Shown: positions 1-38,187 of the stretch, one piece after another
Position numbering within the stretch: position 1 is the stretch's first letter
Layout: each line of letters opens with the position of its first letter
IMG/VR virus record: IMGVR_UViG_2778261226_000006
DNA from: a virus
Lineage: Duplodnaviria > Heunggongvirae > Uroviricota > Caudoviricetes
Strand: one strand, 5' to 3'
Length of the DNA: 38,474 nucleotides
The notes under the pieces: model-generated
Databases searched by the model: none
The model's input: the letters and a program-made list of their open reading frames with translations, nothing else
Told to the model about the DNA's origin: nothing
Program-made: the position numbers and the translations under genes

Positions 1-1053
1 TTACGGGGTAATGCCAACCGCTGCCGCCACTTTGTCGCCACTTGGCAGCGTTGCCAGAGGATTGAAACGGAGCGCCGTTTCCAGATGATCTGGTGCCAGA
101 TGTGCGTAACGCATAGTCATTTTTATATCGTGGTGTCCGAGAATTTTTTGTAAGGCGAGAATGTTTCCACCCGACATCATGAAGTGCGCCGCAAATGTAT
201 GGCGCAGAACGTGTGTGAGTTGACCGCGAGGGAGCACGATAGACGTTTTTTCCATCACGGATAAAAATTGAAAATAGCAGTCTGTAAAGAAATTGAACCC
301 ATCAAGCGCCATGATCTCTTCGTAAAGCTCTTTACTGATAGGGATGCTTCTGTTTTTCTTCCCCTTCGTTCTGACAAAGGTAATTCGGTATTTGGTCACC
401 TGTGAGCGGGTAAGATTTACGGCTTCACGCCAGCGTGCGCCTGTGCTTAAGCATATCTTAACTACCAGTGCCAGAATCGGGTCCTGACGTTTACAATCAG
501 CCAGCAATTCAACAATCTGCTCATGGGTAAGCCATGCCATCTCTTTTTCTGCGATGGTGAATTTTCGCATGTTCTCCAGTGGGTTCGGATACGACCATTC
601 GCCCAGGCGGGATAGTTCGCTAAAAACACTACTTAGATAGCTTTGCTCCAGGTTAATGGTGACCGGGCTTGCTCCTTTCTTCCATTTCTCGCTGAAGTAG
701 ATCTCACCTGTCAGGCGTTTATCTCGATAGTGGGCAAACATTTTAGAGGTGAGATCGGTTGCTAGGGGATTGCCCAGAGCGTCAACCATCAACAGCAATT
801 TATCATAGACATGCTGCCCAGCGGTTAGAGATTTACCATGTAGTTTGAACCATAGCTCAACCACGTCTTTCAGTGTTCGACGATCCACTGATTCTCCCAG
901 CCAGGGCTTTGCTTCGGTTTCTTCCATCGTATGGCGCTCAAAAGCCAGAGCTTCGCCTTTGGTGGCGAATTGTTTACGCACACGACGCCCACTACGTCCG
1001 GCGGGGTAACATTCGCAAAGCCATTTTCCTGTGGTGAGTTTTCGTACTGCCAT
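1..1053 (-). CDS. int: Tyrosine integrase (P2/186 Int family)
   Basis: Tyrosine-recombinase catalytic motifs are present: ...GARWREA..., HVLRHTFA, LGHHDIKMTMRYAHL. The N-terminus MAVRKLTTGKW... resembles P2-like Int. I start at Met27 of the ORF-track entry (ATG 1053). The stop codon TAA is at 1-3. Confidence 0.93.
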   Translation of the reverse strand: MAVRKLTTGKWLCECYPAGRSGRRVRKQFATKGEALAFERHTMEETEAKPWLGESVDRRTLKDVVELWFKLHGKSLTAGQHVYDKLLLMVDALGNPLATDLTSKMFAHYRDKRLTGEIYFSEKWKKGASPVTINLEQSYLSSVFSELSRLGEWSYPNPLENMRKFTIAEKEMAWLTHEQIVELLADCKRQDPILALVVKICLSTGARWREAVNLTRSQVTKYRITFVRTKGKKNRSIPISKELYEEIMALDGFNFFTDCYFQFLSVMEKTSIVLPRGQLTHVLRHTFAAHFMMSGGNILALQKILGHHDIKMTMRYAHLAPDHLETALRFNPLATLPSGDKVAAAVGITP

Positions 1054-1239
1054 AAAAAATGCCCTCCAATAGAGAGCATTTTTACTGTATGTATAACCAG
1101 TGTCAATGTATGAAATCCTGCGACCATACATCTCACTGAAGCCATAATGAAGTTGGCTATTTTTTGCTATGTGAGTATGTGACTTTTGCGGTTAGCCTGC
1201 GGCTCATTGTTATATTAGGCGCAGATATAAAAGCAAAAT

Positions 1240-1446: not shown

Positions 1447-2016
1447 TTACCTAACGTACTTAATTGTTAAACTTATAATTTTCCCAATTATTTCAACATC
1501 TTCTATCTTGCACTCGAAGGCTCTGTTTCCACCTTCAACGAAGATTCTTCCACCGGGTAAACGAGTAATGTCGCGGATTGTTATTTCGCCATCAATACTT
1601 ATTACCCATTTACCGTCACGTATATCATCAAATTCTTTATCACAAATAAATTCAGAATTGTTATCTGTGATGACAAAAGGTTTTTTAAACGTAGAGGGTA
1701 GAAATCCCTTATCAAAAATATAAAAACCGTCTTCACGCAAGGCACCATCAGATAATACATATTTAGCAACTTCCATAGTATTTGTATTACCTGAAGTTTG
1801 CTTTGAACCATGTCCGGTTGTGAGCCAATTAAGCGAGGTGCCCGTTTCAAGGGCGCACTGGATTACCCATTCTGCTGGGAATGAGTCACGCATGTAGCGT
1901 GTGGCGAGTGTACTTTTAGAGATTCCTAAATGATCGCACAACGCCTGTCGAGTTTTGAATCCATAAGCTTCTACCATGCGCTCTATAGCGCCTCGTCCGC
2001 CTTTCTCCAAATTCAT
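1447..2016 (-). CDS. cI: 186 CI-type immunity repressor
   Basis: HTH segment YGFKTRQALCDHLGISKSTLATRYMRD followed by CALETGTSLNWLTTGHG matches my memory of the 186 CI N-terminal domain. It is divergent from the lytic operon. GGAG lies 5 nt before ATG 2016. Confidence 0.85.
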   Translation of the reverse strand: MNLEKGGRGAIERMVEAYGFKTRQALCDHLGISKSTLATRYMRDSFPAEWVIQCALETGTSLNWLTTGHGSKQTSGNTNTMEVAKYVLSDGALREDGFYIFDKGFLPSTFKKPFVITDNNSEFICDKEFDDIRDGKWVISIDGEITIRDITRLPGGRIFVEGGNRAFECKIEDVEIIGKIISLTIKYVR

Positions 2017-2040
2017 GGTCACTCCAAGTGAACTTTTATC

Positions 2041-2069
2041 TTGACGATTTCAATGTGCGATCGTATGTT
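2041..2069 (+). promoter_or_regulatory. Candidate lytic promoter (pR-like) of the lysis-lysogeny switch
   Basis: TTGACG (2041-2046), a 17-nt spacer, then TATGTT (2064-2069), reading toward the apl-like/cII operon. It is flanked by inverted AGTGAAC (2029-2035) and GTTCACA (2075-2081). Confidence 0.5.
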
Positions 2070-2141
2070 TATGGTGTTCACAAAATACAAACGATCCGTA
2101 TTCGTCCTGATTAATCATCATTAAACGAGGAATGTTGCATC

Positions 2142-2363
2142 ATGAGACCTAACATTTCAATCACTCTTACCACGCCTCATGTGACTATTGAACGCTATAG
2201 CGAGCTGACAGGGCTGTCCATCGATACCATCAATGACATGTTGGCTGACGGACGCCTTATCCGTCACCGTCTGCGCAAAGATAAAAAACGTGAAAAAGTG
2301 ATGATCAACATAGCAGCCATGACCGTTGATGCGCTTTCAGAATGCAATCTAAACCTTAATTAG
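2142..2363 (+). CDS. Apl/Cox-type small excisionase-regulator (first gene of lytic operon)
   Basis: Called on position (first ORF after the switch, before cII), size (73 aa) and an HTH-like segment [33 protein letters not shown] present. Confidence 0.6.
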
Positions 2364-2395
2364 TTCGATTCTGAAATACATCAGAGGCATTGACC

Positions 2396-2905
2396 ATGTT
2401 TGATTACCAAGTTTCCAAACATCCACATTTTGATGAAGCCTGTCGTGCATTCGCATTGCGCCACAACCTAGTGCAACTGGCAGAACGTGCAGGCATGAAT
2501 GTGCAGATTCTGCGGAACAAGCTGAACCCAGCTCAACCTCATTTATTAACCGCACCAGAAATCTGGTTGCTTACCGATCTGACTGAAGATTCAACGCTGG
2601 TAGATGGCTTTCTGGCACAGATTCACTGCCTGCCATGTGTACCGATTAATGAGGTGGCAAAAGAGAAACTGCCGCATTACGTCATGAGTGCAACTGCAGA
2701 GATAGGGCGTGTCGCGGCAGGTGCGGTTTCTGGCGATGTAAAAACCAGTGCAGGCCGTCGTGATGCGATCAGCAGCATTAACTCTGTTACACGACTGATG
2801 GCGCTGGCTGCTGTTTCATTGCAGGCCCGTTTACAGGCTAATCCTGCGATGGCGAGTGCAGTTGATACCGTGACTGGCCTCGGTGCTTCATTCGGTTTGC
2901 TGTGA
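2396..2905 (+). CDS. cII: 186 CII-type lysogeny establishment activator
   Basis: [45 protein letters not shown]...[20 protein letters not shown]...GASFGLL closely matches my memory of 186 CII (169 aa). ATG 2396 sits 8 nt after AGAGG. Confidence 0.85.
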
Positions 2906-2912
2906 GGTGCTT

Positions 2913-3113
2913 ATGCTGACGAAAGAACCATCATTTGCATCGCTGCTGGTAAAACAAAGTCCGGCAATGCACTACGGTCACGGCTGGATCATGGGTGAGG
3001 ATGGTACACGCTGGCATCCGTGCCGTTCACAAGATGAATTGCTGGCAGAACTATCTACGAAAAAACGGGGGAACAAATGGCTATTGAAGGCGCTGCGGCG
3101 ACTGTTCCATTAA
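2913..3113 (+). CDS. fil: Fil-family small protein (P2/186 early region)
   Basis: SFASLLVKQSPAMHYGHGWIMGEDGTRWHPCRSQDELL matches the recalled Fil family signature. I start at Met11 of the track ORF, just after the cII stop. Confidence 0.6.
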   Translation: MLTKEPSFASLLVKQSPAMHYGHGWIMGEDGTRWHPCRSQDELLAELSTKKRGNKWLLKALRRLFH

Positions 3114-3418
3114 GACCCGGTGAACGCCTGAATGGACTTAATCATATTGCGGAGTTAAGGGCGAAAGTTTTTGGTTTGAATATTGAGTCAGAGCTTGAGC
3201 GGTTTATTAAAGATATGCGTGATCCTCGGGATATCAATAATGAACAAAATAAACGGGCACTGGCTGCCATATTCTTTATGGCAAAAATTCCAGCTGAACG
3301 TCATAGCATCAGCATTAATGAGCTGACCACTGACGAAAAGCGGGAGTTGATTAAAGCAATGAATCATTTTCGTGCAGTGGTGAGCTTATTTCCCAGACGG
3401 CTAACCATGCCGAATTAA
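3077..3418 (+). CDS. Early-operon hypothetical protein (113 aa)
   Basis: ORF in the same operon orientation. GGGGGA RBS lies before ATG 3077. No motif recognised. Confidence 0.55.
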   Translation: MAIEGAAATVPLRPGERLNGLNHIAELRAKVFGLNIESELERFIKDMRDPRDINNEQNKRALAAIFFMAKIPAERHSISINELTTDEKRELIKAMNHFRAVVSLFPRRLTMPN

Positions 3419-3485
3419 CCAACTAATGAAATTAATGGCGTAAACCCGCCGGGCATCCCTTTATCTAAATTCAGGAGAATTGCTT

Positions 3486-3719
3486 ATGCGTAATATTGAA
3501 ACCCTCACGACCAAAACCGGACCGGATGATGCAGGTCTTAATCTTTTACTGACAGAGGCTCGTCTGGAAGAACGCCGGGCAAGGGCTGAAGCAATGGCTG
3601 CTCGCCTCGATAGCCTGGCGTGTCATATCACCTCCCGCCAGCTAAACCACGTCGAAGCGGCAGAACTGCTGCGTGTGACTGCTGAAGCAATCCAGAACGA
3701 AGCGCAGGAGATCCACTGA
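3486..3719 (+). CDS. Small early protein (coiled-coil, 77 aa)
   Basis: CAGGAG lies 8 nt before ATG 3486. The stop overlaps the next start (TGATG at 3717-3721). This is a typical small P2-like early ORF. Confidence 0.6.
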   Translation: MRNIETLTTKTGPDDAGLNLLLTEARLEERRARAEAMAARLDSLACHITSRQLNHVEAAELLRVTAEAIQNEAQEIH

Positions 3720-3946
3720 TGGCTGATGCAATGGATCTCGTACAGCAGCGCGTTGAAGAAGAACGCCAACGCCATATCCGTGCTGCCCGTGCCAAAACGC
3801 CGGGCGTGTCCCGCGTGCTTTGCGTTGAGTGTGAAGCGCCAATTCCGCCAGCACGCCGCCGTGCCATTCCGGGTGTGCAGCTTTGCATTACCTGTCAGGA
3901 AATCGCAGAGCTGAAAGGCAAACATTACAACGGATGTGCTGTATGA
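3719..3946 (+). CDS. TraR/DksA-family C4 zinc-finger protein
   Basis: CVECEAPIPPARRRAIPGVQLCITCQ is a CxxC-N17-CxxC motif typical of phage TraR-like proteins. The stop overlaps the dam start (ATGA at 3943-3946). Confidence 0.8.
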   Translation: MADAMDLVQQRVEEERQRHIRAARAKTPGVSRVLCVECEAPIPPARRRAIPGVQLCITCQEIAELKGKHYNGCAV

Positions 3947-4797
3947 GCACCATCCTGAAATGGGCAGGAAATAAAACCGCCATAATGTCCGAACTGAAAA
4001 AGCATCTTCCTGCTGGCCCGCGACTGGTTGAACCTTTCGCGGGTTCCTGTGCAGTGATGATGGAGACGGATTATCCCAGCTATCTTGTTGCGGATATTAA
4101 TCCTGATTTAATCAACCTCTATAAAAAGGTTGCTGCTGATTGTGAGGCGTTTATATCTCGTGCCAGAGCTTTATTTGAGGAAGCAAACAGGGAGGTGGCT
4201 TATTACAACATAAGGCAGGAGTTTAATTACTCCACTGAAATTACTGATTTCATGAAAGCGGTATATTTCCTGTATCTCAATCGTCACGGTTACCGTGGTT
4301 TATGTCGCTATAACAAGAGCAGGCATTTCAACATTCCCTACGGTAATTATAAAAATCCGTATTTCCCTGAAAAAGAAATTCGCGCATTTGCAGAGAAAGC
4401 CCAGCGGGCAACGTTTATCTGCGCCAGCTTTGATGAAACGCTGGCGATGTTGAAGGTGGGGGATGTGGTGTATTGCGATCCGCCTTATGACGGTACGTTT
4501 TCCGGCTATCACACTGATGGTTTCACTGAAGATGATCAGTATCACCTGGCATCCATTCTTGAACATCGGTCATCAGAAGGACATCCGGTCATTGTTTCTA
4601 ACAGTAACACGTCTTTGACCCGGTCCCTTTATCGTAATTTCACTCACCACTACATCAGGGCGAAACGCAGCATCGGCGTTGCAGCGGGGGAGGGAAAATT
4701 TGCAACAGAGATGATTGCCACTAAATCTGCTAATTGGTTTAGTGCCGATTTTAGTAGGGGACGTGACTCTACTGTTATTTTCGGGGTGCAAGTGTGA
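3943..4797 (+). CDS. dam: DNA adenine methyltransferase (Dam, GATC-type, alpha class)
   Basis: N-terminus [15 protein letters not shown]...[11 protein letters not shown] (AdoMet motif) and catalytic YCDPPY. I start at ATG 3943, not at the longer track ORF. Confidence 0.9.
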
Positions 4798-5624
4798 AAG
4801 AAATGCACCACGGAATTCATCATTTCCATGGGACGCCTGTCTGGGGAAGTGCTGGCGACGTTCATCGTATTGCGGTGAGCGGAGCTGGCGCTTTCGTCTC
4901 CTATGTACGACCAGATCAGATTGCGGCGTCCATTCAGCACGCTCAGGTCGTCGGCATTGATAACGGCGCATTTTCTGCATGGGTGCGTGGGCTAAAAATT
5001 AACTGGAGTGATTTTTATAAATGGCTCCTGAACTATTACCACCATCCTAAGGTCGCTTTTTTTGTCATTCCTGATGTTGTGGACGGAGGTGAACGTGACA
5101 ATGATGCCCTGATAAACGAAGTTCCGAAAATGTTCTACGGGAAGGCAACTCCCGTCTGGCATCTGCACGAGTCAATCGATCGGCTTATCGAGCTATGTCG
5201 TGAATGGCCTCGTGTCTGCTTTGGATCGTCTGGTGAATATGCGGCTATCAGAACTGCGCACTGGCATCGTCGTATGCAGGACGCTTTTGAAGCAATTTAT
5301 TGCCGACACAATTTCAAAACAGCTGTTCATGGTTTGCGCATGCTTGACGGTCGTGTGTTGGGAAATTACCCACTGGCGACTGCCGACAGTACAAATCTTG
5401 CCTGCAATGTCCCCAAATTTAATAGCAAATATCCTGAGCTGACGCGGGCTATTCAGGAGGCTGAGTATTCGCGCAATCTGACGGAAAAGGAGCTGAAAGC
5501 TGTCATTCTGAAAAACCGTTGCGCAATTTTAAAAGGTGCAATTGAAGCTGTTCGCCCACCTTCAGTTTCTGATTGGCTGTCGAATGGTTTGCAGCCTTCA
5601 CAGCTCGAACTGGAGATTGCGTAA
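4794..5624 (+). CDS. Unknown early protein, possibly a TGT/DpdA-like TIM-barrel (DNA 7-deazaguanine transglycosylase-like); function unproven
   Basis: Start overlaps the dam stop (GTGA) and stop overlaps the A start (TAATG). The motif series [39 protein letters not shown] resembles the strand-end motif order of tRNA-guanine transglycosylase-fold DpdA proteins as I recall them. Confidence 0.7.
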
Positions 5625-7996
5625 TGAACTACAGCTATTCCTGGAATGCTGAGAAAAAAGCAATCAATCCTTACGTAGAGACAGAAGAGCAATCTTCAGT
5701 TTCTGCGCTTTCAAACCTGATCGCTCTGTACGCTGCCGATAACGAGCAGGAACAGCTGCGCCGCGAGGCACTGAGTGATCAGGTCTGGGAGCGTTATTTC
5801 TTTAATGAATCCCGTGATCCTGTCCAGCGCGAAATGGAGCAGGATAAGCTCATTAGTCGGGCAAAGCTGGCGCATGAGCAGCAGCGTTTTAATCCAGATA
5901 TGGTCATTCTGGCGGACGTCAATGCCCAGCCTTCCCATATCAGCAAGCCGCTGATGCAACGTATTGAATACTTCAGCAGCCTGGGCAGGCCAAAGGCTTA
6001 TTCCCGCTATTTGCGTGAGACGATTAAGCCATGTCTGGAACGGCTGGAGCATGTACGCGACTGTCAGCTATCCACTTCTTTTCGCTTTATGGCAAGCCAT
6101 GAAGGGCTGGACGGCCTGCTGATCCTGCCTGAAATGAGTCAGGATCAGGTGAAACGCCTGTCCACCCTGGTAGCTGCGCATATGAGCATGTGCCTTGATG
6201 CAGCTTGTGGCGATTTGTATGTCACCGATGACGTTAAGCCAGAAGAAATCCGCAAGACATGGGAAAAGGTGGCAGCGGAAACCCTGCGTCTGGATGTCAT
6301 CCCGCCTGCGTTTGAGCAACTCCGCCGGAAAAGAAACCGCCGTAAACCCGTGCCCTATGAACTCATTCCGGGTTCGCTGGCGCGTATGTTGTGCGCTGAC
6401 TGGTGGTACCGGAAATTATGGAAGATGCGTTGCGAATGGCGGGAAGAGCAGTTGCGTGCTGTCTGCCTGGTCAGCAAAAAAGCATCTCCCTATGTCAGCT
6501 ATGAAGCCGTGATGCATAAACGTGAGCAGCGCCGTAAGTCGCTGGAGTTTTTTCGTTCTCATGAACTGGTGAACGAAGACGGCGACACGCTGGACATGGA
6601 GGATGTGGTAAACGCCAGCAGCAGCAACCCTGCGCATCGCCGCAATGAGATGATGGCCTGTGTTAAAGGCCTGGAGCTTATCGCGGAAATGCGCGGTGAC
6701 TGCGCCGTTTTCTACACCATCACCTGTCCGTCACGTTTCCATTCCACGCTAAATAATGGCAGGCCCAACCCAACTTGGACAAATGCGACGGTAAGACAAA
6801 GCAGTGATTATCTGGTCGGCATATTTGCTGCATTTCGTAAGGCGATGCACAAAGCCGGATTGCGGTGGTATGGCGTGCGGGTGGCTGAGCCGCATCATGA
6901 CGGTACAGTTCACTGGCACCTGTTGTGTTTTATGCGCAAAAAAGACCGCCGCGCCATCACTGCATTACTGCGTAAGTTTGCCATCCGTGAAGACCGCGAG
7001 GAACTGGGCAATAACACTGGGCCGCGCTTTAAGTCTGAGTTGATTAACCCGCGCAAAGGTACGCCAACAAGCTACATCGCGAAATACATCAGTAAGAACA
7101 TTGACGGGCGTGGTCTGGCTGGCGAGATCAGCAAGGAAACGGGTAAATCTCTGCGTGATAACGCTGAATACGTTAATGCCTGGGCGTCTCTGCATCGTGT
7201 TCAGCAATTCCGCTTCTTTGGCATTCCGGGGCGTCAGGCTTACCGTGAACTGCGATTGCTGGCTGGTCAGGCGGCAAGGCAACAGGGTGACAAAAAAGCA
7301 GGTGCGCCGGTACTGGATAACCCGCGCCTTGATGCCATTCTGGCTGCAGCTGATGCTGGTTGCTTTGCCACCTACATCATGAAGCAGGGCGGCGTACTGG
7401 TTCCCCGTAAATATCACCTCATCAGAACCGCTTATGAAATCAACGAAGAGCCGACCGCCTATGGCGATCACGGTATTCGTATTTATGGCATCTGGTCACC
7501 CATTGCAGAGGGCAAGATCTGCACTCATGCAGTGAAGTGGAAAATGGTTCGTAAAGCCGTTGACGTTCAGGAGGCGGCAGCCGACCAGGGCGCTTGCGCC
7601 CCTTGGACTCGTGGCAATAACTGTCCCCTTGCTGAAAATTTGAACCAACAAGGGAAAGACAAATCAGCTGATGGGGATACCAGAACGGACATTACCCACA
7701 TGGATGACAAGGAGTTGCACGATTACCTGCACAGTATGAACAAAAAAGAGCGCCGGGAACTGGCTGCAAGGTTACGCCTGGTGAAACCGAAACGGCGTAG
7801 AGACTACAAACAGCGAATTACAGACCATCAACGACAGCAGCTCGTCTATGAACTGAAGTCCAGAGGATTTGATGGCAGCGAGAAAGAGGTCGATTTACTC
7901 CTTCGCGGCGGCAGTATTCCGTCAGGAGCAGGCCTGCGTGTCTTCTATCGGAACCAGCGTTTGCAGGAAGATGATAAGTGGCGGAACCTGTATTAA
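5624..7996 (+). CDS. A: Replication initiation endonuclease (P2 gpA / 186 A, HUH rolling-circle nickase)
   Basis: HUH-type motif [13 protein letters not shown] and the tyrosine pair in [14 protein letters not shown]. Size and position match P2 A. The ATG 5624 start overlaps the upstream stop. Confidence 0.9.
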
Positions 7997-8044
7997 TTAC
8001 GCGGGTTAACAATTCGTGCTCTTAATAATACCAGGCATATCAGG

Positions 8045-8075
8045 CTGATGAACGTAAAAAAACGTTTTACATCAG
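8045..8075 (+). terminator. Hairpin downstream of gene A (possible early-operon terminator)
   Basis: CTGATG-AACGT-loop-ACGTT-(TTA bulge)-CATCAG. The T-tract is weak, so this call is tentative. Confidence 0.3.
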
Positions 8076-8090
8076 TAAGATTATTATATA

Positions 8091-8106
8091 CTGTAAATAT
8101 AAACAG
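8091..8106. promoter_or_regulatory. LexA (SOS) box
   Basis: taCTGTaaatataaACAGtg is a perfect CTGT-N8-ACAG with an AT-rich core. It lies 44 nt upstream of the 8150 start in an AT-rich promoter-like stretch. Confidence 0.8.
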
Positions 8107-8149
8107 TGGTTATCTATACAGTATTGTTTGCGGTGTCATAGGAGGAAAG

Positions 8150-8338
8150 ATGCAGGACTATTTTTTGGAGTCTTTGAAGCTCCAGCGCATTGATTTTTTT
8201 CTTAAGCTTGTAGCGGCTAGTGAGTGTAGTGATGAAGAGAAGGGGCTGGCCCTGCAGTGGGTTTCTGAATTGACTGATGAACTCATGGCAAAAATCAGAA
8301 GCCACGAATACAACCGCTCAATGGATGTCATCAGCTGA
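8150..8338 (+). CDS. Small SOS-controlled protein; candidate Tum-like antirepressor (62 aa)
   Basis: GGAGGA RBS (8141-8146) before ATG 8150, directly downstream of the LexA box. The position equals 186 tum. No sequence motif recognised. Confidence 0.55.
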   Translation: MQDYFLESLKLQRIDFFLKLVAASECSDEEKGLALQWVSELTDELMAKIRSHEYNRSMDVIS

Positions 8339-8348
8339 GGTGACTTTT

Positions 8349-8582
8349 ATGCGCATTGAAATAATGATCGATAAAGAGCAGAAGATTAGCCAGTCTACCC
8401 TGGACGCTCTGGAGTCCGAGCTTTACCGCAACCTGCAACCCATCTATCCCAAGACCGCTATCCGCATCCGTAAAGGGTCGGCAAACGGCGTTGAGCTGAG
8501 TGGCTTAAAGCTTGATGAAGACAAAAAGCGGGTGATGGAAATTATGCAACAGGTTTGGGAAGACGACAGCTGGCTGCACTAA
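8349..8582 (+). CDS. DinI-family protein
   Basis: MRIEIMIDKEQKISQSTLDALESELYRNL...KKRVMEIMQQVWEDDSWL parallels E. coli DinI (MRIEVTIAK...ISEILQETWES..DWF). Confidence 0.85.
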   Translation: MRIEIMIDKEQKISQSTLDALESELYRNLQPIYPKTAIRIRKGSANGVELSGLKLDEDKKRVMEIMQQVWEDDSWLH

Positions 8583-8964: not shown

Positions 8965-9576
8965 ATGGATTTAGTCTTTAAAGTTCTGGCTTCGTTGGGT
9001 GGGGTGTCTTTTGTTGCATCTGGCATATTTGTTTGGATCGGGAAAGTTTATTTAGAAAGATATAAGTCGCGGCTAAACAAAGATATTGCTGAATTTCAAT
9101 CACAACTGAGTGCAACTAATGAAAGAATAAAGGCTAAGTTAGACAATTCTGTTTATGTAACGAAAGCGTATTTTGATAAGGAGTTATCAGCATATAGTCT
9201 CATTTGGAATTCGATGTTTGAAACCAGAGAAAGCGTGCTTAAGCTGAGGCCTGCGCTGGATCATGTTGACCCCAACGAACCATTTGAAGAGAGAAAATTT
9301 AGAAGGTTGAAAGTTTTTTTTGATGCATTTAACACTTTTGTTACAAGTGTTGAATCTAACAAACCGTTCATCTCACCAGAGGTTTATATAATCTTGGACC
9401 GTTTCCGGAAGGAATGCCTTTCAGAGTCAATATCGTTTAAGCATAGCGATCCAGAATTTGACGGGCAAAATTATTGGAAAGAGGCGGAGTTGAACCATAC
9501 AACCATCACCAAGCTTTTTGATGAGACGTGTGATGCAATTCGAAACAGGATGCACACATTAACTGTGGTTACGTAG
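8965..9576 (+). CDS. Single-pass membrane protein with helical cytoplasmic domain (203 aa); cargo at the tin/old position next to cos
   Basis: N-terminal TM helix VLASLGGVSFVASGIFVWIG followed by a long predicted helical region. It starts a visibly AT-rich block. The position corresponds to the P2 tin/old variable locus. Confidence 0.75.
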   Translation: MDLVFKVLASLGGVSFVASGIFVWIGKVYLERYKSRLNKDIAEFQSQLSATNERIKAKLDNSVYVTKAYFDKELSAYSLIWNSMFETRESVLKLRPALDHVDPNEPFEERKFRRLKVFFDAFNTFVTSVESNKPFISPEVYIILDRFRKECLSESISFKHSDPEFDGQNYWKEAELNHTTITKLFDETCDAIRNRMHTLTVVT

Positions 9577-9825: not shown

Positions 9826-10350
9826 ATGACTGTTTTACACCTTGTAGCAGACCACCTTGTTAAGCAGGCTAATACAACCCATAGAAAGGGGGAGGTGCAC
9901 GCAATATTAGCAGATGCATATGGTCGTTCTGCTTTTAATCGGTATTATTATGCTTGTTTTCTTAACGTCCGTGAGTTTGTTTCAACTATTGATTCCAATT
10001 GGGGCAAGGTCAAGCATGCAGATGTTCCAAAATTATTACGTGATAGTGTAAGTAGAAAGATAGAAGTTGAGCTCCAAAAATCAGAAAAAATTGGCGATAT
10101 AACTTTATGTGAATATAAATCTAAAAAGAGCTTAATACGTACTTCACTGAACAATATGGCTTCAACTATGGCATTGGCATATACAATTAGGGGAGTTGTT
10201 GATTATGAGCCGGAAATTGAGATGATATTCTGTAATGGCAGTTTTTCGATTAATAAAACATCAGTGGCTTCGGCTAAGGGGTGGCTACAAACCATTAATT
10301 CAGAAAGATCGAAGGTTACCAGAATTATGAAGGAGATTGGCTTTGTCTAA
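9826..10350 (+). CDS. HEPN-like all-helical protein (174 aa), first gene of the retron-associated operon
   Basis: AYGRSAFNRYYYACFLNVREFV...KVKHADVPKLL and a distal AYTIRGVVDYEPE resemble the HEPN (PF05168-type) pattern: ...YYA.F.a...l....sH... then R...DY. AT-rich. The stop overlaps the next ORF. Confidence 0.72.
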   Translation: MTVLHLVADHLVKQANTTHRKGEVHAILADAYGRSAFNRYYYACFLNVREFVSTIDSNWGKVKHADVPKLLRDSVSRKIEVELQKSEKIGDITLCEYKSKKSLIRTSLNNMASTMALAYTIRGVVDYEPEIEMIFCNGSFSINKTSVASAKGWLQTINSERSKVTRIMKEIGFV

Positions 10351-11080
10351 CCAGAAAATATTATCAGAATTGTTGGTAAAATTCCCGTTTATAAAAGTTA
10401 AAGATGTAACAGATTTTATGGATACAATTCTGTTGATCATCCCAATTAACAAAATAGTACCATTGTCTGCTTCGAATAGTATAACAAAACGCCAGATATC
10501 TTTATTGGTGAAACGAATAACAGAAAAGCTAAATGTAAGAGTGTTGATTAGTTACTCACCATTTTCAGATAAAGACAATATTGAAGCGGCTTTAGTGGCG
10601 TTAGCGAGAAGTAATTTTAAAAAAGGGAAGATATCTGATTTGAATTTATCTTTCTTTGATTCGCAAAACGCAGTGCTTTATGTCTTTTGTAAAAACCTTA
10701 CATTATCAGAACGCGAGAAGTGGGAGTCGTTAGTTGTAGGGATATTAAACGGTTTTAATATAAAAGTGACTTCATTTGTATATGAGGCTAAAAATAATCC
10801 TGAACCTACAATGATGGTTATTTTAAGAGCGGCAAAAAAATGTCAGCCCTTTGATCTTCCAAGATTGTTCAGTCAACTTGATAATGGCGATTATCATATT
10901 GAATCACTTGATTGGCTGAATGGGAAGCTAGACAACTTACGTAAGAAAGGATTTTTATTAAGAAGCCATGACGGAACTTATAGAATGACATTGTCAGGGT
11001 TAGAAATAGTTCCAGTGACTAAATCTAGGCAAAGTTCTGATATAGAGAGGGTCCTTTATCTTGCACGCAAACATCTATAG
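10337..11080 (+). CDS. Unknown protein with C-terminal winged-helix-like domain (about 245 aa), second gene of the retron-associated operon
   Basis: Overlaps the upstream stop (TTG 10337 or TTG 10343, 7 nt after GGAG). The C-terminal segment MMVILRAAKKCQPFDLPRLFSQLD...LDNLRKKGFLLRSHDGTYRMTLSGLEIV looks like a wHTH with a beta-wing. The N-terminal alpha/beta region was not recognised. Confidence 0.72.
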   Translation: MALSNQKILSELLVKFPFIKVKDVTDFMDTILLIIPINKIVPLSASNSITKRQISLLVKRITEKLNVRVLISYSPFSDKDNIEAALVALARSNFKKGKISDLNLSFFDSQNAVLYVFCKNLTLSEREKWESLVVGILNGFNIKVTSFVYEAKNNPEPTMMVILRAAKKCQPFDLPRLFSQLDNGDYHIESLDWLNGKLDNLRKKGFLLRSHDGTYRMTLSGLEIVPVTKSRQSSDIERVLYLARKHL

Positions 11081-11089
11081 TGGTATATT
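11061..11089 (+). promoter_or_regulatory. Sigma70 extended -10 promoter for the retron ncRNA
   Basis: TTGCAC (11061-11066), a 17-nt spacer containing TG, then TATATT (11084-11089): TGgTATATT. The predicted start, about 7 nt downstream, coincides with the first base of the a2 repeat (11096). Confidence 0.5.
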
Positions 11090-11095
11090 CGCGTT

Positions 11096-11268
11096 GGTAG
11101 TGGCGTTCACGAGAGTATGCATCATGCTCATTTGTGAAGGTCGCGGACAGAATGTGCGCCTGCGAATCAGCAGTCGTTCCTTCGAAACGTCTGCTGATTC
11201 GCAGGCGTCATCAACGAAAGTTTTCATCAGCTTTGCTTAAGGATTGACCTTATGAAAACGCCACTACC
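11096..11268 (+). ncRNA. Retron msr-msd non-coding RNA (template and primer for msDNA)
   Basis: 12-nt perfect inverted repeats GGTAGTGGCGTT (11096-11107, a2) and AACGCCACTACC (11257-11268, a1). Short msr-like hairpins lie at 11108-11136. The long msd hairpin has arm GCCTGCGAATCAGCAG (11158-11173) and arm CTGCTGATTCGCAGGC (11191-11206), 16 bp perfect, plus a 4-bp inner stem. It lies immediately upstream of, and overlaps the start of, a retron-type RT. Confidence 0.7.
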
Positions 11269-12229
11269 CTTATTTTTCACATTCACTGATGCCGAACAGT
11301 TTCTTAAGGCGTTGAGCACACCGCTGAGAGATAGATATTCTGCGGAACTTATTCGACTACAAGGCCTCAGGCTTCCCCCATTAGTTTCTTGGAGTATCTT
11401 GTCTGTTGCCATTGGCGTAAGCCCACAATTTATTACTTCGTTAATTAAGAATAAGTCAAAATACTATCGTGTTTTTTCTATTTCCAAAGGAAGAGGAAAG
11501 AAAAAAAGAATTATTGAAGCACCCAAGGTTAGTATAAAAATCATTCAGTCTTGGGTCGCTCATCATTTAAGCATTAATCATAGTCTTGGCATAAGTGAAA
11601 ATGCATATGCTTTTATCCCAGGTAAGAATGGGATATATGAAGCTGCAAGTAAACATTGTGGTGCAAAATGGATCCTGTCTATTGATTTAAGAGATTTTTT
11701 CCATACGATCACTTCAGATATAGTGATTTCAACATTAGTTGAAATCGGATATAGAGCCGATCAGGCTGCTAAATTGAGTGAATTACTTACCTTGAATCAG
11801 AGACTTCCGCAAGGTGCGCCAAGTAGCCCTGTTATCTCAAATTTAGTATTTAGGTCAACTGACTTAAAGATTAATGAGTTGATTTCTAATACGGGTATTA
11901 AATATACTAGATATGCTGATGATTTGACCTTCTCCGGTGATGATGAAACATTTGATATCGAGGAACTTAAAGATAATGTTGTAGAGTTGTTACTATCTGA
12001 TAATTGGGTTGTGGCTGAGGAAAAACTCAGAATAGCTAGGATTCCTAATAGATTAAAAGTACATGGTTTTCTAGTTCATGAAAATAAACCTAGATTGACT
12101 AAAGGCTATCGAAATAAAATTAGAGCATATAAACATTTATTGAGGACTGGGAAAATAGTTGAGAAGGATTTTGATAAAATTAAAGGGCATGTTAACTATA
12201 GTGAATATATTGATAGATTGAATGAGTAA
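11252..12229 (+). CDS. ret: Retron-type reverse transcriptase (325 aa)
   Basis: RT motifs KKKRIIEAP, SIDLRDFFHTI, LPQGAPSSPVISN and the YTRYADDLTFSG (YADD) active site. Retron-style NAYAF is present, and LKVHGFLV sits at the position of the retron VTG motif. Size is typical of stand-alone retron RTs. Confidence 0.92.
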   Translation: MKTPLPLFFTFTDAEQFLKALSTPLRDRYSAELIRLQGLRLPPLVSWSILSVAIGVSPQFITSLIKNKSKYYRVFSISKGRGKKKRIIEAPKVSIKIIQSWVAHHLSINHSLGISENAYAFIPGKNGIYEAASKHCGAKWILSIDLRDFFHTITSDIVISTLVEIGYRADQAAKLSELLTLNQRLPQGAPSSPVISNLVFRSTDLKINELISNTGIKYTRYADDLTFSGDDETFDIEELKDNVVELLLSDNWVVAEEKLRIARIPNRLKVHGFLVHENKPRLTKGYRNKIRAYKHLLRTGKIVEKDFDKIKGHVNYSEYIDRLNE

Positions 12230-35854: not shown

Positions 35855-37540
35855 TTATCCTAATCCTGGCCATACCATGACGATGATTGTCCCTGCCAGC
35901 GTCAGCAGGACGTTGGCGATTGCGTAGGTGCCCGCATAGCCCAGCGCAGGGATGTTACTGCGAGCTGTATCACTGATGATCTCCATTGCCGGCGCGCAGG
36001 TGCGTGCGCCCATCATTGCGCCGAACAACAGTGCGCGGTTCATTCGCAATACATAAGCACCGAACAAGAAACAGATAACCACGGGCACAAGACTGACAAT
36101 TAATCCGGCAATCAACATCTGACCGCCAATCGCGCCCAGGCCGTTATTAATACCGCTACCGGCGCTCAGACCAACGCCTGCCATAAACACCATCAAGCCG
36201 AACTCTTTCACCATGCTTAATGCACCTTGCGGAATGTAACCGAAGGTCGGGTGGTTAGCACGCATAAAGCCCAGCATAATTCCGGCGAATAACAACCCGG
36301 CAGCGTTCCCCATGCCGAAACTGAATGTGCTGAACTGGAAGGTGATCATCCCGATCATCAGCCCAATAACAAAGAAGGCGCAAAATGCCAGCAGGTCAGT
36401 GACCTGGCTGTGAATCGAGATAAAGCCGATGCGATCGGCGATGGTTTTTACGCGACGGGCATCACCGCTGACTTGTAAAACGTCACCTTTGTTAAGCACG
36501 ACGTTGTCATCTATCGGCATCTCAATCTGGCTACGAATGACGCGGTTAAGGAAGCAACCGTGATCGGTCAACTTCAGTTGTGCGAGACGTTTACCTACAG
36601 CGTTATGGTTTTTAACGACCACTTCTTCAGTGACGATACGCATGTCGAGAAGGTCACGATCGAAAACTTCTTTACCGTTACGGAAGCTGGGATCGAGTCG
36701 GGCATGGGCGTCGGGATAGCCTACCAACGCTATTTCATCGCCCATTTGTAGCACGGCATCACCGTCTGGATTTGCCAGAATCCCGTTACGTCGAATACGT
36801 TCAATGTAGCAGCCGGTTTGTCGATAAATACCCAGTTCACGCAGATTTTTGCCGTCGGTCCAGGCCACCAGCTCCGGGCCGACGCGATAGGCGCGGATCA
36901 CCGGTAAATAAACCTTACGGTTGGCATCAGTGTCCAGGCCACGTTCGCGGGCGATTTGCTGGGCGCTGGTCTGTAAGTCCTGATGCTGCAATTTCGGCAA
37001 GTAACGCGCACCAACAATCAAACTCACCAGACCGATTAAATAGGTTAAGGCATACCCGAGGCTCAGATTATCCAGTGCCAGTGAGAGCTGCCTGCTTTCC
37101 ATGCCGAAATGACGCAGTGTATCGCCAGCACCGACCAGAACCGGTGTCGACGTCATAGAGCCTGCTAACATACCGGCCGTCAGGCCAATATCCCAGCCAA
37201 ACAGCTTACCTAACCCTAAGGCGATCACCAGCGCACTGCCAACCATCACCAGTGCTAACATTAGGTAATTTTTCCCATCGCGAAAAAAAATGGAAAAAAA
37301 GTTCGGTCCGGCTTCGACCCCGACGCAGAAAATAAACAGCATAAAGCCAAGATTAAGCGCATCGGTGTTAATGCTGAAATGTTGTTGGCCTAATAACAGC
37401 GATACGACTAAAACGCCAATGGAATTACCCAGTTGGATCGAACCAAGTCGTAACTTTCCGAGACATAGCCCAAGCGCGAGGACCACAAATAATAACAGAA
37501 TGTAATTCCCATTTAACAATTCGGCGACGTTTATATTCAC
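35855..37540 (-). CDS. ybjL: Putative AAE-family transporter YbjL (two membrane domains plus central RCK-C/TrkA-C domains)
   Basis: 561 aa beginning [33 protein letters not shown]..., recognised as E. coli YbjL. Confidence 0.95.
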
Positions 37541-37809
37541 GGAGGCTAACTTCTTGTTTACTAGTAAGCTGTTGAAAGAAATGGTAATTTACGATAATGT
37601 TTTTTACCAGAATTCAGGGCGCAGATTCATTCAGCGCACCTAAACGATAGTAAAGTAACAATATATTTTACTAGTGTAATCACATTAGGTATCAACGGCT
37701 ATATGAATTGCGTTGGCCTATATTAGCATGGAATGCGAAGCGGCTTTATCTTACTGAACGCCACACTGGCGAAAAATGTGTTCGATAGACGCAGTGTCAG
37801 GAGGAACGA

Positions 37810-38187
37810 GTGAAACATAAACAACGTTGGGCGGGGGCAATCTGCTGTTTTGTCCTCTTCATTGTGGTGTGCCTTTTTCTGGCGACGCACATGAAAGGCG
37901 CTTTTCGGGCTGCCGGGCATCCTGAAATCGGCTTGCTATTTTTCATTCTTCCTGGAGCAGTTGCCAGTTTCTTTTCACAGCGTAGAGAAGTCCTGAAACC
38001 TCTATTTGGCGCAATGCTGGCGGCACCCTGTTCAATGCTCATTATGCGGCTGTTTTTTTCACCGACGCGCTCATTCTGGCAAGAGCTGGCATGGTTACTA
38101 AGCGCGGTGTTCTGGTGTGCGCTGGGGGCACTGTGTTTCTTATTTATCAGTAGTTTGTTTAAACCACAGCACAGAAAAAATCAGTAA
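37810..38187 (+). CDS. ybjM: Inner membrane protein YbjM
   Basis: 125 aa with about 4 TM helices. GTG start after GGAGGA. Its position between ybjL and grxA matches E. coli K-12. Confidence 0.88.
   Translation: MKHKQRWAGAICCFVLFIVVCLFLATHMKGAFRAAGHPEIGLLFFILPGAVASFFSQRREVLKPLFGAMLAAPCSMLIMRLFFSPTRSFWQELAWLLSAVFWCALGALCFLFISSLFKPQHRKNQ

Follow-up and report, generated by a model that had tools for sequence, protein, structure and literature searches.

A P2/186-like prophage of Escherichia coli, represented here by a window of 38,474 nucleotides (IMG/VR record IMGVR_UViG_2778261226_000006), carries in its early operon a gene for a Dam methyltransferase followed by an open reading frame (ORF) of 276 residues, at 4794-5624. 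We consider it likely that this ORF is a phage DpdA, that is, a compact, zinc-less TIM barrel of the tRNA-guanine transglycosylase (TGT) superfamily belonging to the 'DpdA-only' cluster of gamma-proteobacterial phages. DNA is its expected substrate, and the base that it would insert is probably a 7-deazaguanine. The ORF is a fresh member of a family already catalogued as DpdA in the literature, in which, from 2022 on, we found nothing specific on the DpdA of P2-like phages or prophages.

Gene and operon structure

The features of the locus are collected in Table 1. The coordinates and both overlaps given in an earlier, sequence-only reading, GTGA with the dam stop and TAATG with the start of A, agree with the sequence: dam extends from ATG 3943 to TGA 4795-4797, the ORF from GTG 4794 to TAA 5622-5624, and gene A begins at ATG 5624. 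At the 5' end of dam, its ATG is shared with the stop of the TraR/DksA-like ORF lying upstream (ATGA, 3943-3946). As stops and starts overlap at all junctions, the TraR-like gene, dam, the ORF and A make up a four-gene chain with zero intergenic space. A consensus scan found a single promoter-like site on the + strand in 1900-8400, located between a divergent CI-like repressor gene (1447-2022, - strand) and the first early ORF (2142), an arrangement which fits 186-type phages; with a total count of sites below the shuffle expectation, it is weak evidence of a promoter. No promoter-like site was found by the scan in the dam-to-ORF interval. A terminator-like hairpin at 4752-4774, just 5' of the ORF start, was considered as a break in the operon and rejected, having three G-C pairs and belonging to a class of sites whose number equals the shuffle expectation. 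Antisense and out-of-frame ORFs inside 3943-5624 were unsupported and were taken as chance.

The ORF has 4313 homologues at E <= 1e-3, and its dN of 0.11-0.17 against saturated dS (dN/dS of approximately 0.03-0.07) points to strong purifying selection. The number of homologues, the low dN/dS and the invariance of the motif residues together identify it as a real gene and not a chance frame. In RefSeq the gene starts at ATG 4803, giving 273 aa and the product label "hypothetical protein". An ATG or GTG nine codons before HxHG, the position of GTG 4794, is kept in most P2-like relatives whereas ATG 4803 is not, and the GTG 4794 start, together with the GTGA overlap, is therefore better supported. 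One read-assembly contig contains a 421-aa 'Dam-DpdA fusion' (P0011), which we did not accept as a natural fusion, its probable cause being an assembly error of one base in the overlap of 4 nt.

Table 1. Features of the early operon and sequence motifs of the DpdA candidate (positions in the window; residues numbered from GTG 4794)
Feature	Position	Strand	Basis or remark
Candidate early promoter, TTGACG, 17-nt spacer, TATGTT	2041..2069	+	Consensus scan; ahead of the apl/cII/fil...dam-dpdA-A operon
TraR/DksA-type zinc-finger gene	3719..3946	+	PF01258 E 4.4e-11; phrog_54 E 1.4e-29
Dam-family N6-adenine DNA methyltransferase, 284 aa, DPPY motif	3943..4797	+	PF02086, TIGR00571
GTGA, overlap of ORF start and dam stop (translational coupling)	4794..4797	+	Read from sequence
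DpdA-type (TGT-fold) DNA-guanine transglycosylase candidate, 276 aa, GTG start	4794..5624	+	
GIDNGAFS, residues 54-61	4953..4976	+	C-terminal end of strand 52-56; aligns with LDSGAFSA of 9g DpdA
VIPDVVDGG, residues 91-99	5064..5090	+	Follows strand 87-91; D94 invariant in 98 homologues
VWHLHES, residues 121-127	5154..5174	+	H123 invariant, also in 9g DpdA (PCFHAGE)
GSSGEY, residues 144-149	5223..5240	+	Loop after strand 140-144
VHGLRML, residues 178-184	5325..5345	+	H179, G180 invariant, also in 9g DpdA (KVHGFG)
ATADSTN, residues 195-201	5376..5396	+	D198, S199 invariant in 98 homologues and in 9g DpdA (YSCDSSS)
TAATG, overlap of ORF stop and gene A start	5622..5626	+	Read from sequence
Replication initiator gene A (rolling-circle nickase), 790 aa	5624..7996	+	PF05840 E 2.6e-128; phrog_91 E 1e-287

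Family membership and fold

The ORF belongs to PHROG 887 (E 2.4e-96), the family which also contains the validated DpdA of phage 9g (6.9e-98) and the proteins of MED16, SE131 and SEN1. When a 98-sequence profile of the ORF was aligned with 9g DpdA by hhalign, the two were matched with Prob 98% and E 1.6e-13 over 154 columns, and DxGAFS, PxxH, G, HG and DS were brought into line. Over more than 90% of its length the ORF is 75.7% identical to SEN1 gp38, 54.7% to MED16 DpdA and 36% to the SE131 protein. SEN1 gp38 (YP_009217891) is listed as DpdA in Supplementary Data 1 of Hutinet 2019, and among viral proteins it has been given as the closest homologue of the DpdA of MED16 (PMC8306585). A structure model was built from the 98-sequence alignment, a single-sequence AlphaFold model (pLDDT 35) having been discarded, and it shows a (beta/alpha)8 barrel, to which TGT-family enzymes are the closest among solved structures. 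A TGT/DpdA-like fold had been guessed by eye, and family assignment, profile alignment and barrel all uphold that guess.

The searches against TGT and DpdA divided according to method. Structure comparison, with TGT-family enzymes nearest, and the profile alignment with 9g DpdA were positive, and sequence-only searches for TGT were negative: the ORF has no match in Pfam (including the TGT model PF01702), NCBIfam or PADLOC, phmmer and hmmsearch against PDB sequences returned nothing, and hhalign of the family profile with the single sequence of E. coli Tgt gave no signal (Prob 1.5%). The validated 9g DpdA likewise has no Pfam TGT match and, since it is equally invisible to Pfam, the missing match of the ORF is not evidence against DpdA. 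For MED16 DpdA, HHpred gave 99.2% with the TGT profile (PMC8306585). We counted against the assignment that the ORF has no equivalent of the structural zinc site present in TGT and in bacterial DpdA; CxCxxC...H does not occur in its 276 residues, the cysteines of which are C135, C142, C170, C203 and C243.

Predicted active site

The five motifs singled out in the sequence-only reading, GIDNGAFS, VIPDVVDGG, GSSGEY, VHGLRML and ATADSTN, were all found in the order given there. Conservation was scored over 98 homologues, down to approximately 27% identity, and among these D56, D94, H123, H179 and D198-S199 are invariant or nearly so, as is N57 beside D56. In the model D56, D94, H123, H179 and D198 are placed at the C-terminal ends of barrel strands, D198-S199 being at the end of the last one (196-199), and D56, F60, H123, H179 and D198 are identical in 9g, MED16, SE131 and SEN1.

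By analogy with Salmonella DpdA, in which Asp95 and Phe99 have the same D-x-x-x-F spacing (PMC10164549), D56 is predicted to act as general acid/base and F60 to stack on the base. D94 is predicted to be the Asp of base recognition; in the alignment with 9g DpdA an Asp of the latter stands opposite D97 and not D94, so that this second Asp is three residues out of register and ambiguous. H123 is the likely counterpart of His181 of the Salmonella enzyme, and D198, the predicted nucleophile, that of Asp256. We infer this mapping to Asp95, Asp130, His181 and Asp256 of structure 7UI4. Judged by order along the barrel, GSSGEY, of which G144 is nearly invariant and S145 and S146 are invariant within the close clade, would correspond to the TGT loop that contacts the 7-substituent. 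For H179, a possible parallel is the His in the catalytic pair D248/H226 of Cap10 (bioRxiv 10.1101/2025.04.06.647259).

Base supply and proposed mechanism

The annotation of the near-identical prophage of ATCC 8739 contains no que, folE or dpdC gene, and none was found among the accessory-region ORFs scanned in the window. Of 5426 complete E. coli genomes, 5425 have queC. The earlier suggestion that a lone DpdA could draw on the host pool of preQ0 agrees with this distribution of queC, with the behaviour of 9g DpdA, which by itself introduces dPreQ0 into plasmids in E. coli (PMC6884629), reaching approximately 800 per 10^6 nt of plasmid DNA under arabinose-driven expression, and with that of nt-1 DpdA2, whose insertion is lost in a queD deletion host (PMC10516641).

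We propose that, once the prophage is induced or a cell infected, the candidate early promoter would drive transcription of the ORF, and that translation coupled with that of Dam and initiator A would make the enzyme present during phage DNA replication. As in TGT and Salmonella DpdA, by analogy, D198 would attack C1' of the target deoxyguanosine in duplex DNA and D56 would protonate the departing guanine, and the covalent enzyme-DNA intermediate would then be resolved by a 7-deazaguanine from the host queuosine pathway, namely preQ0 or possibly its amide precursor ADG. Virion DNA would then be expected to contain dADG or dPreQ0 at few positions, probably in particular sequence contexts, and in an amount of about 0.01-0.3% of G. 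Dam would methylate adenine independently, the two enzymes being operon neighbours and not an obligate pair. Any benefit to the phage might lie in evading some restriction or other DNA-targeting defences.

MED16 virion DNA contains 354 dADG and 3 dPreQ0 per 10^6 nt, plus m6A (PMC8306585), and phage 7-11, a close relative of SE131, has dADG only (PMC6884629), the share of G replaced by dADG being 0.13% in the former and 0.02% in the latter (PMC8306585, PMC6884629). The link between DpdA and dADG in these two phages is a correlation and not a genetic test. There is no known enzyme for making the amide in MED16 or 7-11.

It is possible, though we judge it unlikely, that the DpdA-only clade, including the present ORF, inserts ADG, an intermediate of host QueC, directly and does not use preQ0, with the Ser-Ser of GSSGEY, invariant in and specific to the clade, reading the carboxamide. 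Direct insertion would explain the presence of dADG with almost no dPreQ0 in two tested members that are without a DpdC-type nitrile hydratase. The dADG data from MED16 and 7-11, the invariance of S145 and S146 in the close clade and the persistent slot before A are circumstantial evidence for it. If true, this would be a new substrate specificity in the family, and the mark written by a temperate phage of E. coli would be ADG, sparse and site-specific, with a possible interaction with Dam sites or with the nicking of the origin by gene A.

Extent of modification and relationship with Dam

The expression 'anti-restriction hypermodification', which had been applied to Dam and the ORF together, is too strong given the trace levels of the tested relatives (PMC6884629, PMC8306585) and the finding that MED16 dADG gave no measurable protection from the restriction enzymes tried (PMC8306585). 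The same observations would suit a protein which has kept the fold and installs no deazaguanine in E. coli, being either effectively silent, with noise-level modification and no phenotype, or else a glycosylase or binding protein acting on DNA, which would excise or recognise guanine but not exchange it. Mycobacteriophage Orion, with DpdA only and a host without the preQ0 pathway, has no modification (PMC6884629), and the gene is missing from many close relatives of the present phage. Loss of deazaguanine insertion nevertheless seems to us quite unlikely, given that the ORF is under strong purifying selection, that the catalytic and base-binding positions are all invariant in a family as diverse as that scored here, and that one slot has been kept across phages whose gene A proteins are just 29-36% identical.

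The Dam protein itself is readily recognised. It matches PF02086 with E 1.2e-75 and TIGR00571 with 314 bits (cutoff 115), has 'CDPPYDG' in its translation, does not reach the cutoff of NF008152, the equivalog of host Dam (284 vs 441), and is labelled by PADLOC as 'orphan MTase' (6e-109). GATC is neither avoided nor enriched, with 128 sites observed against a shuffle expectation of 131. It had been suggested that Dam and the ORF form a two-enzyme module, and in its strict form, an obligate module with interdependent activities (for example, with a common site, or with one product guiding the other), this is very unlikely. The two genes share the GTGA overlap, Dam is directly upstream of the ORF in 50 of 80 related IMG/VR loci (the search for related loci used a 21-sequence alignment), across two very different types of gene A, and MED16 has a methylase and DpdA in one operon with both m6A and dADG in its DNA (PMC8306585). 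However, Dam is absent from the remaining 30 loci, in which the ORF is still directly before A, and from SEN1; a DpdA-like gene is directly upstream of A in 77 of the 80. Conversely, in at least 30 isolated phages dam is joined straight to A with no ORF. Phage records matching the region numbered 58, none covering 80% of it, and among the 30 matches listed dam and A are approximately 95% identical and the ORF is missing. A related early region occurs in approximately 1300 E. coli genomes, but the ORF is found at >=99% identity in only 102. The methylase of MED16, moreover, belongs to a different family and is six genes distant, the neighbourhood in lambdoid SPN3UB contains no methylase, and 9g DpdA functions alone (PMC6884629). 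Dam and the ORF are thus coupled in translation in this phage, yet are separable in evolution.

Significance

The assignment gives a testable function and a name to a RefSeq "hypothetical protein". At >=99% identity the ORF is present in 102 of the 5426 complete E. coli genomes, among them that of the standard strain ATCC 8739, which has an identical cassette, and homologues in prophages of the Enterobacterales number in the thousands. If the prediction is true, the DNA of ordinary temperate P2/186-like E. coli phages contains 7-deazaguanine by means of the host queuosine pathway only, and this would bear on restriction evasion, on sensitivity to defences that sense deazaguanine and on possible artefacts when methylation in induced prophages is called from nanopore or SMRT data. 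With its tractable genetics, an inducible prophage of E. coli could also serve to address the source of dADG where DpdC is absent and the role of trace-level modification. The conceptual gain is modest, because the DpdA family has already been described.

Comparison with known systems

Bacterial TGT, archaeosine TGT (arcTGT) and QTRT1/2 have no sequence-level match with the ORF. Unlike these enzymes it has no zinc site, N-terminal lid or RNA-binding domains, and its predicted substrate is DNA. The label of PHROG 887, 'queuine tRNA-ribosyltransferase', and the place of TGT and arcTGT among the best structural matches would favour an enzyme that exchanges a base in host or phage tRNA, or in other RNA, and not in DNA. 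We regard this as highly improbable, for the label is an inherited annotation and not a test, and the same PHROG contains a DNA enzyme, 9g DpdA (PMC6884629); the ORF, at 276 aa against 375-577 for TGT and arcTGT, has neither their zinc subdomain nor their RNA-binding C-terminal parts, and phages of its relatives carry dADG in DNA (PMC8306585, PMC6884629). It is scarcely credible that the ORF resembles Cap10 of type IV CBASS (PDB 9NTN), which acts on a protein N-terminus with Cap9 and a CD-NTase, and binds or transfers a protein-attached 7-deazaguanine (on a phage or host replication protein, for instance) with no exchange in DNA, since Cap10 leads DpdA by just 0.8 Z units at 11% identity to the ORF, no CD-NTase or QueC-like Cap9 was found in the operon or the scanned accessory ORFs and PADLOC gave no match, the sequence homology of the ORF is to 9g DpdA and not to CBASS proteins, and the deazaguanine of its relatives was measured in hydrolysed DNA.

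For a phage DpdA, the reading that we prefer, the solved enzyme from Salmonella Montevideo (PDB 7UI4) is a distant comparison, with 13% identity to the ORF. It has 413 aa, four insertions and a CXCX2CX22H zinc site, all of which the ORF is without. The DpdA of the Dpd island requires the DpdB ATPase and acts with DpdC and DpdD-K, whereas no dpdB (ParB-like ATPase), dpdC or dpdD-K is found among the neighbours of the ORF, which are TraR, Dam and gene A.

Enterobacteria phage 9g swaps about a quarter of its G for dG+ and encodes FolE, QueD, QueE and Gat-QueC beside dpdA, whereas no synthesis genes were found among the ORFs scanned in the present phage. The DpdA of 9g (DpdA1) is only approximately 21% identical to the ORF but resembles it in belonging to PHROG 887, in having neither a Pfam TGT match nor the CxCxxC zinc motif, and, as predicted for the ORF, in functioning in E. 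coli.

The closest known relatives of the ORF are DpdA proteins, already listed as such, of Salmonella phages SEN1, 7-11 and SE131 and of Pantoea phage MED16 (gp38), phages which are without genes for preQ0 synthesis. MED16 and 7-11 differ from the present phage in being virulent or unrelated siphoviruses or podoviruses; DpdA relatives in other phage types are also located in replication modules. SEN1 has a 92-aa ORF where Dam is found here and has no Dam-DpdA-A overlap chain, but like the present phage it is P2/186-like and its DpdA gene lies directly before gene A.

Identity and extent of the DpdA-like gene

The 276-aa ORF lying between dam and replication gene A is a member of the DpdA family, and four lines of evidence agree on this: its PHROG assignment, profile alignment to the DpdA of phage 9g, the predicted fold and the invariant residues. 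The ORF matches PHROG 887 ('queuine tRNA-ribosyltransferase', E 2.4e-96), as does 9g DpdA (6.9e-98), for which preQ0 insertion into DNA has been shown experimentally (PMC6884629). No match to the ORF was found in Pfam, NCBIfam or PADLOC, and Pfam likewise gives none for 9g DpdA; against PDB sequences nothing was returned by phmmer or by a profile of 98 homologues. When this family profile was compared with 9g DpdA by hhalign (probability 98%, E 1.6e-13, 154 columns), IDNGAFS was paired with LDSGAFS, PVWH with PCFH, the G of GSSG with its counterpart, VHGL with VHGF and ADS with CDS, as also in a five-way alignment. An AlphaFold model based on the 98-sequence alignment (pLDDT 94.2, pTM 0.91) has eight strand-helix units. 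At a threshold of E <= 1e-3 Foldseek matches it to archaeosine TGT alone in the PDB and to 32 viral models in BFVD, of which nearly all the named ones are phage queuine tRNA-ribosyltransferases. The sequence-only reading had guessed at a TGT-fold, DpdA-like enzyme from the order of five motifs, all of which are present in that order, and the guess was correct.

D94, H123, H179, D198 and S199 are invariant over the 98 homologues, D56, N57 and G144 nearly so, and in the model each of these conserved residues is placed at the C-terminal end of a predicted barrel strand. They reproduce the pattern of Salmonella DpdA, in which the acid/base Asp95 is followed four residues on by Phe99, and then by Asp130, His181 and the nucleophile Asp256 (PMC10164549). 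Matching the individual residues to these is our inference, and in the 9g alignment the second Asp of 9g DpdA falls opposite D97, not D94. The family is already known, since the SEN1, SE131 and 7-11 relatives have been listed as DpdA and the MED16 DpdA has been published; its E. coli prophage member is unannotated.

Judged from its sequence, the ORF is a genuine gene on which purifying selection acts strongly: it has 4313 homologues at E <= 1e-3, a dN of 0.11-0.17 and saturated dS. All features described in the earlier reading were found where it had placed them, including both overlaps of the ORF with its neighbours. RefSeq (WP_001420002.1, ATCC 8739) begins the protein at the ATG at 4803, giving 273 aa. 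Most P2-like relatives have an ATG or GTG where GTG 4794 lies here, exactly nine codons ahead of the HxHG motif; conservation among the P2-like relatives compared does not extend to the ATG at 4803. The GTG start, which gives 276 aa, creates the overlap with dam and was also that of the earlier reading, is therefore preferred on grounds of conservation.

A few database proteins, P0011 (421 aa) and P0121 (399 aa) among them, fuse Dam (PF02086) to full DpdA-like sequence, or run the N-terminal part of the latter into other sequence; P0011 is a Dam-DpdA join. Each comes from a single read-assembly contig and is doubted as a natural fusion; such joins probably reflect errors of a single base in the 4-nt overlap.

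Prophage setting and operon structure

The window holds a temperate, P2/186-like phage that is integrated in an E. coli chromosome. E. coli ATCC 8739 carries the same prophage (>99% identity) beside rcdA, and this comparison, together with Pfam hits at the right end, shows that the prophage is flanked by rcdA on the left, outside the window, and by ybjL/ybjM on the right. In place of the retron cassette, the ATCC 8739 copy has other cargo after gene A and a P-loop ATPase of the Sll1717 family amid its tail genes. In the window, the accessory hotspot that separates gene A/DinI from the portal gene is occupied by a type IX retron-like defence cassette of three genes, and the ORF between DinI and this cassette has no Pfam or PADLOC family.

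Features of the prophage and its early operon
Feature	Position	Strand	Remarks
Integrase	1-1131	-	
CI-type repressor	1447-2022	-	
apl-like ORF, cII (PF06892), fil, DUF5347 gene, DUF2732 gene			rightward early operon, in this order, then TraR/DksA
TraR/DksA zinc-finger gene	3719-3946	+	early operon
ATGA	3943-3946	+	TraR stop/dam start overlap
dam	3943-4797	+	early operon
GTGA	4794-4797	+	ORF start/dam stop overlap
ORF (DpdA-like)	4794-5624	+	early operon
TAATG	5622-5626	+	ORF stop/gene A start overlap
Replication gene A	5624-7996	+	early operon
203-aa ORF	8965-9576	+	
Retron-like cassette	9826-12229	+	
HEPN_IX	9826-10350	+	PDLC02923, 1.4e-52
HTH_IX	10337-11080	+	PDLC02925, 1.5e-61
Reverse transcriptase RT_IX	11252-12229	+	PDLC02948, 4e-129; PF00078
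P2-type morphogenesis genes			downstream of early operon
ybjL, ybjM	35855-38187		host genes, right end; Pfam hits

The TraR-dam-ORF-A chain has zero intergenic space, and a scan found neither a promoter-like site nor a convincing terminator inside it, the sole + strand promoter-like site (2041-2069) lying ahead of the early operon. A hairpin at 4752-4774 (+), inside the 3' end of dam and ~20 nt before the DpdA-like start, has 8 pairs (3 G-C) followed by TTATTTTCGG. It was dropped as a terminator because such sites are no commoner in the window than in shuffles, but it could still influence the translational coupling of the two genes. Shuffles predict 131 GATC sites and the window has 128, and there is therefore neither avoidance nor enrichment in this Dam-encoding phage of a Dam+ host.

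Possible activity of the DpdA-like protein

A tblastn search of isolated phages gave three informative relatives: gp38 of Salmonella phage SEN1 (75.7% identical), gp38 of Pantoea phage MED16 (54.7%) and a homologue in the 7-11-like Salmonella phage SE131 (36%). SEN1 (YP_009217891), SE131, 7-11, SPN3UB, BTP1 and PEAT2 are listed as DpdA phages without preQ0 genes (Hutinet 2019, Supplementary Data 1), the 'singleton' DpdAs of gamma-proteobacteria phages forming a distinct cluster (PMC6884629). The nearest viral homologues named for MED16 DpdA are SEN1 gp38 and SW9 gp39; MED16 virion DNA contains m6A and 354 dADG per 10^6 nt (0.13% of G), and the restriction enzymes tried were not detectably affected by the dADG (PMC8306585). 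In phage 7-11 DNA, dADG stands at 0.02% of G (PMC6884629). By analogy with these relatives, the substrate of the E. coli prophage enzyme would be DNA, and the base, modification level and benefit may be similar.

The analysis itself shows the gene, its fold, family and conserved residues, the operon anatomy and host queC, which 5425 of 5426 complete E. coli genomes carry; the mechanism is proposed. The gene would be expressed from the early operon along with gene A. D198 would then bond covalently to C1' of the targeted deoxyguanosine, with D56 donating a proton to the departing guanine, and a host-derived 7-deazaguanine would resolve the intermediate, giving sparse, motif-specific dADG or dPreQ0; Dam would modify adenine independently. 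The annotation of the near-identical ATCC 8739 prophage lists none of queC, queD, queE, folE and dpdC, and in the window itself the scan for such genes covered the accessory-region ORFs only. 9g DpdA alone puts dPreQ0 into plasmid DNA in E. coli (PMC6884629), and insertion by nt-1 DpdA2 is lost in a queD deletion host (PMC10516641). MED16 and 7-11, both of the DpdA-only phages tested, carry the amide dADG rather than dPreQ0, without DpdC (PMC8306585, PMC6884629). The QueC reaction passes through ADG as an intermediate. One speculative and rather unlikely route is that the DpdA-only clade may insert ADG directly, the Ser-Ser of the GSSGEY loop, invariant within the clade, being a candidate carboxamide reader.

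The very low modification in the tested relatives favours an enzyme that is close to silent, or one that acts in the manner of a glycosylase and makes no exchange, but the strength of the purifying selection and the invariance of the active site speak against this and we consider it improbable. An RNA target, as the PHROG label implies, is unlikely because 9g DpdA sits in the same PHROG and the dADG of the relatives is borne by DNA. The locus is of value chiefly as an experimentally tractable prophage of E. coli in which the biology of DpdA-only phages could be worked out; the analysis also corrects the annotation and start codon of the gene.

Association with Dam and with replication genes

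In 80 related IMG/VR loci the DpdA-like gene nearly always immediately precedes gene A, also in phages whose A protein is only 29-36% identical to the one here; dam lies directly upstream of the DpdA-like gene in 50 loci and is missing in 30. The region is matched by 58 phage records, none reaching 80% coverage; in the 30 matches listed (Klebsiella KP12, 4LV2017, Salmonella RE2010 and others) dam and A, at ~95%, are adjacent and the 831-bp ORF is absent. About 1300 complete E. coli genomes have a related early region, and 102 have the ORF at at least 99% identity. The consistent partner of the DpdA-like gene is the replication machinery, not Dam. An obligate Dam-DpdA module is contradicted by these co-occurrence data: dam and the ORF are physically and translationally coupled here, yet are not an obligate pair. 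The two-enzyme anti-restriction module proposed earlier is only partly supported: the coupling stands, and the loci without dam, the listed phages without the ORF and the MED16 restriction result count against the rest.

The link to the replication module persists across P2-like phages and is also seen in other phage types. In the lambdoid SPN3UB the homologue follows O and DnaC-like genes, and in 9g dpdA sits beside the polymerase in the replication module, neither having a neighbouring methylase. SEN1, a 186-like phage, has its gene in the same slot as here, immediately before the replication gene, but differs in being without dam.
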